Positions 25,940 through 41,113 of a stretch of DNA of 64,000 bases are shown one piece after another. Within the stretch, counting starts at the first letter, position 1. Each line of letters begins with the position of its first letter. The notes below the pieces were generated by a model, which saw only the letters and a list, made by a program, of their open reading frames with translations, was not told where the DNA came from and ran no database searches. Made by a program: the position numbers and the translations under genes. This DNA comes from an uncultured Chloroflexia bacterium (GTDB lineage Bacteria > Chloroflexota > Limnocylindria > Limnocylindrales > CSP1-4). The stretch covers positions 151,787 to 215,786 of the forward strand of contig CAVXLA010000010.1 of assembly GCA_963762445.1 (NCBI GenBank), written 5' to 3'.

Positions 25940-28900
25940 ATGGCCCGACGAGAGGAGGCCGCCCGATCGCCCGCCTCGAAGACCTGACCAAGGGCGCCCT
26001 CGTCACCGGCGTCGTCGCGGACCACGCCGTGACCGTCGTCGACGTCACCTGGCACGGCTCCGAGGTCCTGACGCTGACCTACCGGACCGCCGACGGCGCC
26101 GTGGCCGAGCGCCTCGTCTACCGCGAGGACGAGCCGCGCCTGGCGATCGTCGAGGAAGGCAAGCCCTGGGCCTTCGACGGCGACGGCGAGGCCTTCAAGC
26201 TCGCCAGCGAGGCGAAGCGGATCGATCTCGCCTACCTCTTCGACCCGTACGTCGCGGTCAGCACGAGCCTCGTCGAGCCGCTGCCGCACCAGATCACCGC
26301 CGTCTACGAGGCGATGCTGCCGCGCCAGCCGCTCAGCTTCCTCCTCGCCGACGACCCGGGCGCCGGCAAGACGATCATGACCGGGCTCTTCATCCGCGAG
26401 CTCATCGTCCGGGGCGACCTCCGGCGCTGCCTCATCGTCGCCCCGGGCTCGCTCGTCGAGCAGTGGCAGGCCGAGCTCGCCGAGAAGTTCCACCTCGACT
26501 TCACGCTCCTCACCCGCGACCGGATCGAGGGCTCGGCGTCGGGCAACCCGTTCGCCGACAGCGACCTGCTGATCGCCCGCCTGGACAAGCTCAGCCGCGA
26601 CGAGGACCTCCAGCTCATCCTCGACAACGCCCCCGACTGGGACCTCATCGTCTTCGACGAGGCCCACAAGCTCTCCGCCCAGCTGTTCTCGGGCGAGGTC
26701 AAGAAGACGAAGCGGCGCCTCCTCGCCGAGCGGGTCAAGCCCCACACCCGGCACTTCCTCCTCCTGACCGCCACGCCGCACAACGGCAAGGAGGAGGACT
26801 TCGAGCTGTTCATGAGCCTGCTCGACCCCGACCGGTTCGCGGGGCACAAGCGCAAGGCGTCCGACGCCGCGCCGCCGCGCCTCGGACCCCGGCGAGCTCA
26901 TGCGCCGGTTGATGAAGGAGCAGCTCGTCAAGTTCGACGGGACGGCGCTCTTCCCGCCCCGCTACGCCTACGTCGTGCCCTACGACCTCTCCGGGCCCGA
27001 GGCCGCCCTCTACGAGCAGGTCACGACGTACGTCCGCGAGGAGATGAACCGGGCCGAGCGCCTCAAGGCGGAGGGCGAGGGCAAGCGCGGGCTCATCGTC
27101 GGCTTCGCCCTCATGGTCCTCCAGCGCCGGCTCGCGTCATCCCCGGCGGCGATCCACATGTCGCTCAAGCGTCGCCTCGCCCGCCTGGAGCGGACGCTCG
27201 CCGAGACCCTGCTGCAGCGCGACGGCGCCCAGGCCCGGATCAGTCAGCCGGAGCTCGACGCGATCACGATCGCCGACATCGAGGAGATCGACGACGACGA
27301 GGCGACCGCCGAGGAGGCCGAGGCGGCCGAGGAGACCGCGGTCGATCTCGCCACCGCCGCCAGCACGATCGCGGAGCTCCGTCTCGAGATCGAACGGCTC
27401 AAGGAGCTCGAGGCCCTCGCCGCACAGGTCCGGAAGCTCGGCACCGACACGAAGTGGACCGAGCTCTCGACGCTCCTCCAGGAGGCGCCCGAGATGCGCG
27501 ATGCCGGTGGCGGACGGCGCAAGCTCATCGTCTTCACCGAGCACCGCGACACGCTCGACTATCTCGTCGAGCGGATCGGCACGTTCCTCGGGCGGCCGGA
27601 GGCGATCGTCGCGATCCATGGTGGGCTGCCGCGCGACCAGCGGCGCGCGGCGGAGTCTGCCTTCAAGAACGATCCCGCGGTCGTCGTCCTCGTCGCGACC
27701 GATGCGGCGGGCGAGGGCATCAACCTCCAGCGCGCCCACCTGATGGTCAACTACGACCTGCCCTGGAACCCGAACCGGATCGAGCAGCGGTTCGGGCGGA
27801 TCCACCGGATCGGCCAGACCGAGCCGTGCCACCTGTGGAACCTCGTCGCCCACAAGACCCGCGAGGGCGACGTCTACGCCCGCCTGCTCGAGAAGATCGC
27901 CGTCCAGACGGAGGCCCTCGGCGGGCACGGTCTTCGACGTCCTCGGGGAGGTCACGTTCGAGGGCAAGCCGCTCCGCCAGCTCCTCATCGAGGCGATCCG
28001 CCTGGGCGACAGCCCCGAGGTCCGGACCCAGATGACGCGGGTCATCGACGAGGCCCTCGACGTCGAGCACCTCCGCGCGCTCCTCGCCACCCGTGCCCTC
28101 GGGGCGAACCTCCTCGACACGACCAAGGTCGCCGCGGTTCGCGACGAGCTCGAACGCGCCGAGGCGAACCGGCTCCAGCCCCACTACGTCCGCGACTTCT
28201 TCCTCCTGGCGTACCGGCGCCTCGGCGGGCAGGTCCGTGAGCGCGAGCCCGGCCGCTACGAGCTGACGAAGGTCCCCGGGCGGATCCGCGATCGAGCCCG
28301 TGAGGCCGCGATGCGCCCGGGGGTCCTCGGCGCGTACGAGCGGATCGCCTTCGAGAAGGACCGGGTCGCGGTCGTCGGGTTCCCGCTCGCCGAGTTCGTC
28401 TGCCCCGGCCACCCGCTCCTCGAGGCGACGATCGACCTCGTCCTCCAGGACCATCGCGAGCTCCTCCGCCGCGGTGCGCTGCTCATCGACGAGACCGACC
28501 CGTCGGACTCGATCCGAGCCCTCGTCTACCTCGAGCACGCGATCGTCGACGGACGACCGACCCGCGACGGGCACCCGACCGTCGTGAGCCGTCGCCTCGA
28601 GTTCGTGGAGCTCGGGGAGGTCGATGCCGGCGGCGCCGGAGCCGCGCCCTACCTCGACTACCGACCGTGCGCGGACGAGGAGCGTGCCCTCGTCGGCCCG
28701 ACGATCGATGCCGCCGCCTGGCTCATCGGCACGACGCTCGAGGGCCGCGCCACCGACTACGCGATCGAGCGCCTCGCCCGCTCCCACCTCGCCGAGGTCC
28801 GCGAGCGCACCCTCGACCGGATCGAGCGGACCCGGCGCGAGGTCCACGCCCGCCTGACCTACGAGATCAACTACTGGGACGGCCAGTACGCCCGCCTGCG

Positions 28901-38700: not shown

Positions 38701-41113
38701 GTCGTCAGCCCTCAAGCTCCAGCTGCCGTGGACGAATGCCCGCCGCTCTTGGTTACCGTCAAGGGACGCCTGGCGGTACACGACCCCCGCCAACAGCGCG
38801 GCAAGGTCTACCTGCTCACGTGGCGGGATGCGCTCGCGGAGAAGCTGGTCGACGAGCGATCGGTCGCTCGCCTTCGGGTGGAGCCAAAGGATGCAGAGCG
38901 ACGTCGCCACGTTGCTGCGGCCATCGCTTGGTGACCGCCTGATCGAGGTCGGGCGACGCGACATCACCGTCTCGATCGGGAGCCAGGTCGTCCGGCCGTC
39001 AGCCGCCGACCCGGCCCTGGTCACTGCCCAGCGCGCATGGCTCGCCGACCTACTCGCGATCACACTCAATCTCGTCTTCCGCACCGACGTGACGCCCCAG
39101 ACCACCGCTCGCGCCGTTGGCAAGCTCCGCAGGATCCGGCTCCGCTTCGGTAGTCCGATCAAGGTGGCGGTCCGGAACACAGGCCTCGGGGACACCGACG
39201 GCGCCGTATCAGCGGTGCCCGTCGACGACGACCGGCTCCCTACGATCGTTGTCGCGGGCGACGGAGGCGCCGAAGCGAAAGCGCTCCGGTGGCCGCAGCT
39301 TGAGGCGATGTCCTCCGCCATCGCTGAGCTGGTGGGCTATCCATCGGCCGATGTCGCACTGCGGTTCGCCATCTCCAAGCTGGCAGGCGGCAGCCCGGGT
39401 CCGGTGACCCGTCCTAACGAGGAGACCTACGCGTCGGCGCTCGGAATCCGAGAAGCGGCAGTGCGCGAAGTGCTGCTTGCGAACCGCGACTTGCTGAACC
39501 GGCTGGTCTTCGTCCTTCGTCCCGTCGTCCGCTGCCTCGGAAGCAGCCGGACCCTCAAGGCCCTGGACGGCGGCGGCGAGGACGGTCCGTCCGAGCGGCG
39601 CCTGCTCGAGCTCTTCGCGCAGCTGCGGCTCCCCGGCGGCTGGACTCCGGAGTCGCTGCTCGCCGCCGCTCGCGAGGCGGACACGCCGACGGACCTGCGC
39701 GATCGGCTGGGGATCCCGTTTGGCGAGTTCAACGCCGCGCTCGAGGCATTGGGTGGTCCATACGAGCCTGACCGGCAGCGCGACATCCATGAGGCGGAAT
39801 TCGCACGCTGGCTGAGGATGGCCATGAGCGGATCGCCCTGACGCTACGCGCCGCTGCGCTGCCCTCGTTCGACGAAGGCTCAATCCCCGCGTGGTACCCG
39901 GCAGCACTCGCGGAGTTGGACCGGGCGCGTCGCCTCGGTCCGGCCGCGGAACGCCCAAATGTCGCACGTCTCACCGCGGATCCCACCTGGCTCGACCAGA
40001 TGCGAGTCCCGACGCCCGATGTGATGCGGGAGCGTCTCGGGTCCTGGCTCTCGACCTTCGGGATCTCAGCCCCCTCCGGCCGAGTCCCGGGACTGCGCAA
40101 GCTCGCCGACGTACGAGCGGCAAACACCACGACCGTCGATCATCTCTCGCGAGCGGCCGCCCCGCTGGTCTTCGCCTGGTGCAGGATCCACGACACTGAA
40201 GCACCGAGTTGGGCGTCCGGCGGACCCAGGGCACTCTCCCTCGAGCTCCAGCACAACGGCGTGCTGGACTTTCGAAAGCTGGACCTGGCAGCCGTCCTCG
40301 ACTGGTTGCCGAAGGTCGCCGGGACATGGCCAGCCTCGATGCCGCTCACTCGCGATCCGGATAGGCTCGGCCTGACCCGCAACCAGGTGTCGGCCGCGGC
40401 TGCCGAGCTGGCGAACCAAGGCGAACCTTCCAAGGCAAAGGTGAGGCGGTCTGTGCCGCTGGACGGACACGAAGTCTCGCTCGCCGACGACGGTGCTGCA
40501 GACCTTCTTGCTCGCGTCGACGGGTCGCTCGGCAGCCTCCTCGAGGTGCCGCCAGAGATCGCCCAAACCGGACCGCTGCCAGAGGGGCGAGGCGATGGTG
40601 GCGGTCGGGGAGGACGCGGCGGTGCCGCCAGCGAGACGAGCCTGTCTGACGCCCAGCGCGAGATCATTGGGTTCATCGGGGAGTTGGTCGCCTATCGGTG
40701 GCTGTGTCGCCACCTGGGCGACGGACGCGTCACCTGGTGCTCCGGCCTCGCCCTGTCATTACGACGCGACGCTCCCCGGTGAACGACAGCCTCGGCTACG
40801 ACATGCGCGTCGTCGACCCCGGGATCCTCGCCGGCGGCGAAGGGCTAGCGCGCCAGCTCTTCATCGAGGTCAAGGCCGTTGGCGAGCCGCGGCCTGGTCG
40901 TCCCGTCTCGTTCAGCCTCACACGTATCGAGGTCGAGTTCGCGCAGGAGCACGCTGACGACGGCAGCTACTTCATCCTCGTGGTCGCGAACGCGCTGAAG
41001 AGCGAGCAGCCGGACGCATCCATCTGCTCCCGAACCCATTCTCCGCCGCGGGTCGCAAGGTCTTCCGGGACATGTCGGACACGCGGACGATGCTGTTCAA
41101 CCTGGCGGGCTAG
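35728..41113 (+). pseudogene. Giant (~1800 aa) GHKL/Bergerat-fold ATPase (sacsin/MORC-like N-terminus) with a C-terminal DUF3883-like nuclease module; at least 13 frame changes as assembled
   Basis: Pieces lie in ORFs 35728..36219, 36125..36373, 36030..37262, 36466..36984, 36788..37504, 37329..38024, 37726..38934, 38117..38575, 38666..39841, 39916..40782 and 40698..41225, plus a hand-read last frame (..IHLLPNPFSAAGRKVFRDMSDTRTMLFNLAG, TAG 41111). Motifs: FVTELIQNAHDA (35890), LYVANKGRPF, GQGIGNKGVGFKSVFLVSD. C-terminus: REIIGFIGELVAYRWL...SLGYDMRVV...LFIEVKAV...FSLTRIEVEFA...YFILVVAN. The start is uncertain: TTG 35728, or ATG 35679 with one more frame change. Confidence 0.7.

Follow-up and report, generated by a model that had tools for sequence, protein, structure and literature searches.

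A 15-kb defence island very probably composed of two named anti-phage modules, a three-gene Hma system followed by a single-gene Tiamat

Organization of the locus

The window analysed here is a stretch of 64,000 nucleotides, in which the coding signal of the 25.9–41.1 kb region lies entirely on the forward strand, as observed both in a GC3 frame plot and with a frame HMM. Four genes follow one another in this region (Table 1). The GTGA overlap between hmaA and hmaB (29511–29514) and the 10-nt gap ahead of the hmaC ATG (32350) are real, as had been described in the original prediction, whereas the distance between the third and fourth genes, previously given as approximately 110 nt, is actually 64 nt (hmaC stop codon at 35612–35614, tmtA ATG at 35679). 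Every motif quoted in that prediction was found at its coordinate (Table 1). The cysteine pairs of the HmaB Zn ribbon are also in place (30223–30240 and 30411–30422, the latter being CLVC), but the first pair, CPNPAC, is of the Cx4C type and not CxxC. The start of hmaA is uncertain: the ATG at 25940 is shifted by one base from the frame of the conserved HmaA N-terminus, and the options are an eighth indel in this gene or a start at CTG 25984 (TTG in the orthologue of locus L003) or GTG 26029.

Table 1. Genes, spacer and main motifs of the 15-kb block (window positions).
Feature	Position	Strand	Description	Motifs and domains (position)
hmaA	25940..29514	+	SNF2/Swi2 helicase with C-terminal DUF3883/NOV_C PD-(D/E)xK nuclease	DDPGAGKT 26350; DEAH 26656; third helicase motif 27785; nuclease D...ExK 29213-29280; GWDVES 29225; LIEVKGR 29266; TRNEI 29314
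hmaB	29511..32339	+	DUF1156 N6-adenine-type methyltransferase; Zn ribbon 30223-30422	N-terminal DUF1156 motif 29586; SAM-binding motif I 29862; motif IV DPPY 31126-31137
hmaC	32350..35614	+	Swt1-like HEPN fused to DUF499 ORC/Cdc6-like AAA+ ATPase	HEPN about 32380-32715; Rx4H RNRWAH 32619; Walker A GGGKTH 33087
Spacer, hmaC stop to tmtA ATG	35615..35678	+	64 nt; boundary of the two modules	
tmtA (Tiamat)	35679..41113	+	Sacsin-like GHKL ATPase head with C-terminal DUF3883/NOV_C nuclease	N-box ELIQNAHDA 35890; G-box GIGNKGVGFKSVF 36076; GYDMRVV 40794; D...ExK 40800-40874; FIEVKA 40860

Identification of the two modules

Pfam searches, performed on fragments and on frame-repaired proteins, identified SNF2-rel_dom, Helicase_C and NOV_C (DUF3883) in HmaA, DUF1156 (E = 1.6e-30) in HmaB, HEPN_Swt1 (model positions 1–114 of 115) and DUF499 in HmaC, and SACS and NOV_C in TmtA, in agreement with the domains first assigned. 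Fragments of the broken genes matched PADLOC models, too. The four repaired proteins gave full-length PADLOC matches, HmaA to PDLC00659 (1548 bits, model positions 2–1171 of 1176), HmaB to PDLC00660 (1190 bits, model positions 8–958 of 967), HmaC to PDLC00662 (982 bits) and TmtA to PDLC03971 (1338 bits, model positions 10–1773 of 1782), and all catalytic motifs are kept, including both the SAM-binding motif and motif IV of HmaB, whose central target-recognition region is divergent. Repaired HmaA and HmaC are identical to their intact counterparts in L003 at 1164 of 1190 and 1024 of 1088 amino acid residues, respectively. In TmtA, about 1500 residues of family-specific sequence separate the GHKL head from the C-terminal nuclease, and the closest relative is the intact 1806-residue protein P0001, with 1383 identical positions out of 1806 (77%). 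Nine residues that are invariant among 14 TmtA relatives (E71, N75, D78, G135, K137, G138, D1704, E1726 and K1728) are also present in the window protein.

The 15-kb block very probably consists of two already named anti-phage modules placed head to tail, a three-gene Hma system and then a single-gene Tiamat; it is an ordinary small defence island and not a new four-gene system. Hma was named in PADLOC in 2021 (Payne et al., PMC8565338), having been noted earlier, in 2013, and was re-described as "Type-1 BREX-related (BR)", with a HEPN-fused DUF499 variant in 1370 of 2446 taxa (PMC12839542). For Tiamat, a PD-(D/E)XK system consisting of a single gene (10.1101/2024.10.26.620412), the mechanism is described as still unexplained (PMC10482375). 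The region had been correctly recognised as a defence locus, and its first three genes as R-M/BREX-like. However, the trio of helicase, DUF1156 methyltransferase and HEPN-DUF499 protein, which had been taken as uncharacterised and unnamed, is the Hma of PADLOC, and the "fourth, possibly novel, component" is the TmtA of Tiamat; a match to an already named system was the outcome that the original prediction had itself set down as counting against it.

Within the BR systems, Type 2 is marked by a standalone DUF3780 gene and an N-terminal HKD. The junctions between the hma genes (4-nt overlap and 10-nt gap) are too tight for an extra gene and no standalone DUF3780 gene is found inside the block, nor did PADLOC give any N-terminal HKD match in HmaA, which aligned from model position 2.

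A canonical BREX (type 3) or DISARM system in place of Hma is hardly conceivable. HmaA does have secondary PADLOC matches to DrmD, BrxHII and DrmA (245–374 bits), and DUF499 is related to BrxC (PMC12839542), but the Hma models scored 3–4 times higher and matched end to end, and the four tightly joined genes include none that is PglZ, BrxA/B/L, DrmB or DrmC. The only BREX models matched were the BrxHI/BrxHII helicase models, again by HmaA and secondarily; PADLOC gave no match to PglZ or BrxC among the block genes and adjacent ORFs, and none at all for the flanking ORFs. DISARM is defined by DrmA together with DrmB (DUF1998) and DrmC (PLD) or DrmE, with DrmMI/MII, and here DrmB and DrmC were not found by PADLOC, HmaA giving only weaker matches to the helicase cores of DrmD/DrmA. 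Canonical BREX types 1–6 and DISARM were accordingly rejected.

Relation between Hma and Tiamat

At the DNA level, the block is homologous to 21 intact Hma loci only over positions 25954–35627, this homology ending at 35615–35627, at the hmaC stop codon, and no TmtA-like gene is present within 10 kb in any of these 21 close loci. Homology to the locus of P0001 (L022) covers only 35701–41108, and the gene upstream of P0001 is unrelated to hmaC. TmtA relatives adjoin Ssp/Dnd-like genes, Dcm-Vsr, CBASS, Eco57I-like R-M, UvrD-PDDEXK, or nothing recognisable. A full Hma system was found in none of the 80 TmtA loci from GTDB reference genomes (one has a DUF1156 methyltransferase and a SNF2 helicase near TmtA), and Hma is missing from 8 of 10 metagenomic TmtA contexts and from 79–80 of the 80 GTDB loci. 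As judged from these locus comparisons, Hma and Tiamat move independently, and the four families, originally viewed as one unit, do not travel together.

Two metagenomic contigs depart from this picture. In L027, gene order and strand match those of the block, except for two genes embedded between hmaA and hmaB, and 53 nt separate hmaC from tmtA; in L026 DUF499/DUF1156 genes adjoin tmtA in divergent orientation. The window proteins are 28–35% identical to their L027 counterparts, alike for all four. A loose affinity between Hma and Tiamat is possible, given this recurring adjacency, and the similar divergence leaves room for an old co-inheritance of the four genes. Co-transcription of hmaC and tmtA is also possible, since no terminator is predicted in the 64-nt spacer, where no promoter-like site was called either.

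These observations, namely the common strand, the short gap, the arrangements of L027 and L026 and the even divergence, together with the reported recruitment of nearby auxiliary nucleases by BR systems (PMC12839542), would fit one four-gene system, in which TmtA is an integral component or auxiliary effector of an Hma variant, co-transcribed and functionally coupled. We nevertheless consider this unlikely, as the full combination is absent from the 21 close Hma loci and the 80 GTDB TmtA loci, the homology breakpoints coincide exactly with gene boundaries, the 77%-identical TmtA has another upstream gene, published work regards Tiamat as a single-gene system, and Hma is known as a hotspot into which unrelated defence genes insert, about 63–66% of its loci having embedded genes (10.1101/2024.01.29.577857; PMC11232893). 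Equally doubtful is a composite in which, in some Hma/Type-1 BR loci, a giant of the Tiamat GHKL-DUF3883 type would have been acquired directly 3' of hmaC, to be transcribed with the hma genes and to serve as an accessory effector; in its favour, very distant versions share the layout, and the four proteins have diverged between them to a similar extent. If true, the window, L027 and perhaps L026 would represent a recurrent composite architecture with two cooperating systems, in which Tiamat might, for example, back up Hma once methylation-dependent restriction is evaded.

Frameshifts in the four genes

All four genes are broken, a point absent from the original prediction. None has an intact ORF as sequenced, and frameshift-aware alignment to intact relatives required 7, 12, 9 and 22 one-base indels in hmaA, hmaB, hmaC and tmtA, respectively, about 50 in total (39 insertions and 11 deletions; the values for hmaB and tmtA are approximate). 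Those of hmaA are located at about 26879, 27924, 28988, 29133, 29152, 29210 and 29266, and those of hmaC at about 32438, 32508, 33142, 33206, 33313, 33845, 34545, 34774 and 34865. With 28 of these frameshifts, hmaABC are not, as sequenced, the intact genes required in the curated PADLOC sets, which leave out pseudogenes. The indel density of the block, about 3.3 per kb, is more than 10 times that of the flanks, where at least 14 uninterrupted genes encode full-length domains. The same alignments revealed no in-frame stop across the four genes, and no nonsense codon, large deletion or IS element in the block. The inserted bases are not homopolymer slips, and, relative to L003, HmaA has a dN/dS of 0.047 and HmaC one of 0.086.

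The indels are most likely consensus errors, arisen where a long-read metagenome assembly covered a strain-variable island at low depth; this reading is probable because dN/dS is 0.05–0.09, insertions are in excess and the flanking genes are mostly intact. It is possible, although clearly less likely, that the sequence is accurate and the island truly dead, with four real, recently inactivated pseudogenes (through lost selection or autoimmunity, for example). Defence islands turn over rapidly, and about 50 frameshifts within 15.2 kb, set against mostly intact flanking genes and confined to exactly the defence genes, would fit a selective decay. On the other hand, such dN/dS values leave little room for neutral substitutions, and the 7 indels of hmaA compare with a total of only about 31 non-synonymous differences, a ratio far above that usual in bacteria. 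The block also lacks nonsense codons, large deletions and IS elements, the 39:11 excess of insertions is opposite to the deletion bias of bacterial gene decay, and single isolated frameshifts occur as well in the housekeeping-type genes copA and livM.

Proposed mechanism

HmaB would methylate host adenines within a motif recognised by its variable central domain, providing a self mark, and HmaC, as an ORC/Cdc6-like AAA+ ATPase, may assemble or scan and detect invader DNA that is unmodified, its N-terminal HEPN RNase being a possible back-up suicide effector. HmaA is predicted to translocate by means of its SNF2 motor and to nick or cut DNA with its C-terminal PD-(D/E)xK domain, as shown for a homologue: the HmaA homologue of Halomonas protects against phage T4 and both its SNF2 and PD-(D/E)xK nickase domains are needed, while over-expression of HmaB left T4 sensitivity unchanged (PMC11232893). 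TmtA presumably links an ATP-dependent sensing step to its nuclease activity.

Comparison with known systems

The BREX type 3 core of ATPase, N6-methyltransferase and SNF2 helicase (BrxC, BrxXI and BrxHII) is homologous to that of Hma (PMC12839542). Unlike BREX type 3, the block has no PglZ and no BrxA/BrxF, its ATPase is of the DUF499 and not the DUF6079-type BrxC family, its methyltransferase has a DUF1156 N-terminus and its helicase carries a nuclease predicted to be active. In its proposed logic, by analogy, the system would resemble the ATP-dependent Type I/III R-M systems, with methylation as self mark and an ATP-driven translocase-nuclease acting on unmarked DNA, but the protein families are others, an AAA+/HEPN component is added and the methylation and cleavage specificities are here putative.

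The first three genes share with the HEPN-fused variant of Hma/Type-1 BR the SNF2-PD-(D/E)xK protein, the DUF1156 N6-adenine methyltransferase with DPPY and the HEPN-DUF499 AAA+ protein, as well as the A-B-C order on a single strand, the tight junctions and the full-length model matches; they differ in that their frames are broken as sequenced, in the Tiamat gene abutting the 3' end and, from most Hma loci, in having no genes embedded between them. TmtA differs from Tiamat elsewhere in its indels and in its location directly downstream of hmaC, and its host is Chloroflexota-like, while most TmtA relatives were found in Actinobacteria or Proteobacteria; it has, nonetheless, the Tiamat size of about 1800 residues, the sacsin-like GHKL head, the DUF3883/NOV_C tail and the invariant N-box, G-box and D...ExK residues.

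Identity and layout of the block

We identified the four large genes as a new instance of two known defence systems, Hma (hmaA, hmaB and hmaC) and Tiamat (tmtA). The G+C content of the window is 70–75%, and GC at third codon positions (GC3), followed by frame plot and frame HMM, showed plus-strand coding all along 25.9–41.1 kb, with a phase that switches every few hundred bases; the longest ORF in the block does not exceed 668 amino acids, against 950–1800 amino acids for the genes claimed. Long minus-strand ORFs in the block (two examples are in the table) were dismissed as high-GC shadow ORFs, since GC3 keeps the plus-strand phase throughout. 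The frame HMM placed frame changes well in the hma genes and poorly in tmtA, where GC3 is lower, and by itself did not distinguish frameshifts from gene boundaries; it was superseded by a purpose-written dynamic-programming aligner of protein to DNA that allows frameshifts, with 21 related Hma loci carrying intact genes, and intact TmtA relatives, as references.

The ORF fragments gave strong, collinear matches to PADLOC models, and the repaired proteins matched the models end to end. The Pfam domains SNF2, Helicase_C, NOV_C and DUF1156 were recognized in the unrepaired fragments, a complete Swt1-like HEPN domain together with DUF499 in HmaC, and SACS and NOV_C in TmtA. BREX type 3 and DISARM were rejected, because the secondary PADLOC matches to DrmD, BrxHII and DpdE were three to four times weaker than those to Hma and covered only the helicase core, and because neither PglZ, DrmB nor DrmC was found by the PADLOC models in the block fragments or the repaired proteins.

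The original prediction of one uncharacterized four-gene R-M/BREX-like system was, given the PADLOC matches to Hma and Tiamat, right in kind and mistaken as to novelty, its underlying observation being real but incomplete. All the motifs that it quoted are present where it placed them, as are the GTGA stop/start overlap (29511–29514) and the 10-nt gap ahead of the ATG at 32350; the hmaC–tmtA spacer, put at ~110 nt, measures 64 nt, and the ATG at 25940, proposed as the helicase start, is one base out of frame relative to the conserved helicase N-terminus. A scan for promoters and terminators returned the site counts of shuffled sequence. Directly 5' of hmaA, a small ORF with a weak likeness to DUF2283 (E = 6e-4, which does not reach the Pfam cutoff) appears unbroken, in contrast to the genes downstream.

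Positions of the features discussed, in the window unless another locus is named
Feature	Position	Strand	Frameshifts	Match or content
Tandem repeats	17522–17951	+		Nested units of 27, 99 and 126 nt, with matching of up to 99%, within an ORF encoding DGLSRRQDADG-type repeats
Small ORF	25495–25823	+		
hmaA	25940–29514	+	7	PADLOC 1548 bits, model positions 2–1171 of 1176
hmaB	29511–32339	+	about 12	PADLOC 1190 bits, model positions 8–958 of 967
hmaB centre	29900–31650	+		
hmaC	32350–35614	+	9	PADLOC 982 bits
tmtA	35679–41113	+	about 22	PADLOC (PDLC03971) 1338 bits, model positions 10–1773 of 1782
Shadow ORFs	27747–29405; 31812–33182	-		
copA-like P-type ATPase gene	41274–44130	+	1, ~43530 (43525–43535)	HMA, E1-E2 and hydrolase domains
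tRNA-Glu(ctc) call	43927–43999	-		ARAGORN; may be a false positive, lying opposite the 3' end of the copA-like gene, which appears to be coding there
livM-like permease gene	~56200–58043	+	probably 1 (or fusion), near 56880	BPD_transp_2, positions 5–200 of 269, in one frame
GC3 phase changes	3800–4800; 58200–58600	+		
Locus L022	6313–15919			Ssp/Dnd-like phosphorothioation cluster, 3' of P0001
Metagenomic contig L026	1063–10623			DUF499/DUF1156 divergent from tmtA
Metagenomic contig L027	1–15406			hmaA-(2 embedded genes)-hmaB-hmaC-tmtA

Separability of Hma and Tiamat

We conclude that, contrary to the four-gene unit first proposed, the Hma and Tiamat modules are separable, and that their adjacency is a recurrent minority arrangement. 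At the DNA level, the window resembles the 21 Hma loci from 25954–25966 to 35615–35627, exactly from hmaA to the hmaC stop, and TmtA-like sequence was found within 10 kb in none of these loci. In the closest TmtA relative, P0001 (77% amino acid identity), similarity to the window is confined to 35701–41108, and its neighbours are an unrelated gene upstream and Ssp/Dnd-like genes downstream. The cluster downstream of P0001 contains a cysteine desulfurase, DUF4007, a 1168-amino-acid protein, a PAPS reductase, a DEAD helicase and an AAA_23 protein. Other TmtA relatives adjoin Dcm-Vsr, CBASS, an Eco57I-like R-M system, UvrD-PDDEXK, or nothing recognizable. HMMs built from the Hma orthologues detected full Hma in 0 of 80 TmtA loci from GTDB genomes, a single one of which (L092) has a DUF1156 methyltransferase and an SNF2 helicase upstream. 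GTDB genome scans with single sequences, namely a TmtA fragment and the flanking ADP-ribosylglycohydrolase, gave no match.

A functional coupling of Hma and Tiamat is improbable, whereas some affinity between them is indicated by the same adjacency in two unrelated metagenomic contigs: L027, with the order and strand of the window, a 53-nt gap before tmtA and 28–35% identity to the window for all four proteins, and L026, with the divergent arrangement. The genes embedded between hmaA and hmaB in L027 are a PIN gene pair, and the DUF1156 gene of L026 is truncated and lies beside a DDE transposase. Hma loci have been described as insertion hotspots for other defence genes, with embedded genes in ~63–66% (10.1101/2024.01.29.577857; PMC11232893), and the adjacency is best explained by defence-island clustering together with this property of Hma.

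Frameshifts in the block and its flanks

The frameshift-tolerant alignment placed 50 frameshifts in the block (39 extra and 11 missing bases) and detected no in-frame stop codon in the four genes; in the hmaB centre the positions are approximate, with 12–14 events depending on the reference orthologue. The inserted bases are mostly G or C and lie outside homopolymers. Repaired HmaA and HmaC are 97.8 and 94% identical to their orthologues in the Hma locus L003, with dN/dS of 0.047 and 0.086, respectively.

The genes on either side of the block are unbroken and carry full-length domains (among them the genes for ADP-ribosylglycohydrolase, Ogt, MFS-cNMP, Crp, GAF, S8 peptidase, HD-GYP, an HTH-TPR protein, CysS, KAS II, LivK and LivH). 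The copA-like gene has a single frame switch, followed by a cupredoxin-like tail, which indicates that indels occur outside the defence block too. The remainder of the livM-like gene lies in another frame, which extends into the ORF of the livG ATPase. GC3 also changes phase in two other flanking regions with no nearby stop in the upstream frame, possibly through further isolated frameshifts.

We consider the frameshifts to be probably consensus errors concentrated in a low-coverage, strain-variable island, because of the strong purifying selection, the excess of insertions, the absence of nonsense mutations and deletions, and the stray frameshifts in housekeeping-type genes (copA-like, livM-like). 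A very recent, real decay of the defence island, which the more than 10-fold local excess of frameshifts would also fit, seems less likely in view of these same four features.

Origin of the Hma cassette

The relatives of this Hma were found in MAGs of Chloroflexota (Limnocylindrales-like) and of Actinomycetota. The Chloroflexi MAG WY3.bin12 has an HmaA with 98% identity to ours, while the best GTDB-representative match of CysS, in a Chloroflexia MAG, reaches 58%; this difference suggests that the cassette was recently transferred horizontally, although the incompleteness of MAGs calls for caution. In the centre of hmaB, identity to the same relatives (Hma loci L001, L003 and L007, whose HmaA and HmaC are 94–98% identical to ours) falls to ~35–50%. 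This divergence fits a swapped target-recognition region and points to an altered specificity of the methyltransferase.

Relation to described systems

The helicase/methylase/ATPase trio, including the HEPN-DUF499 fusion, was noticed in 2013 and later re-described as a "Type-1 BREX-related" system, the HEPN-fused variant occurring in 1370 of 2446 taxa and a fusion of helicase to nuclease in 79% (PMC12839542); it was also named Hma (helicase, methylase, ATPase) as a candidate system with 1,638 operons in 26 phyla (PMC8565338). Protection against phage T4 by Halomonas HmaA requires both its SNF2 and PD-(D/E)xK nickase domains, and the same study measured no effect of HmaB over-expression (PMC11232893). 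Tiamat appears in one source as a single-gene PD-(D/E)XK system (10.1101/2024.10.26.620412), and another mentions its enrichment in Actinobacteria (PMC10482375).

The importance of the locus beyond annotation is little. A reading of raw sequence can recover domain content despite dense frameshifts, and comparison with a defence-system library and a check of frame integrity are required before such a block can count as new. For work on the co-localization of defence systems, the recurrent Hma–Tiamat adjacency offers a minor lead, and the Hma cassette seems to illustrate recent horizontal transfer. Hma, here in its HEPN variant, and Tiamat each gain a Chloroflexota-type instance from this locus.
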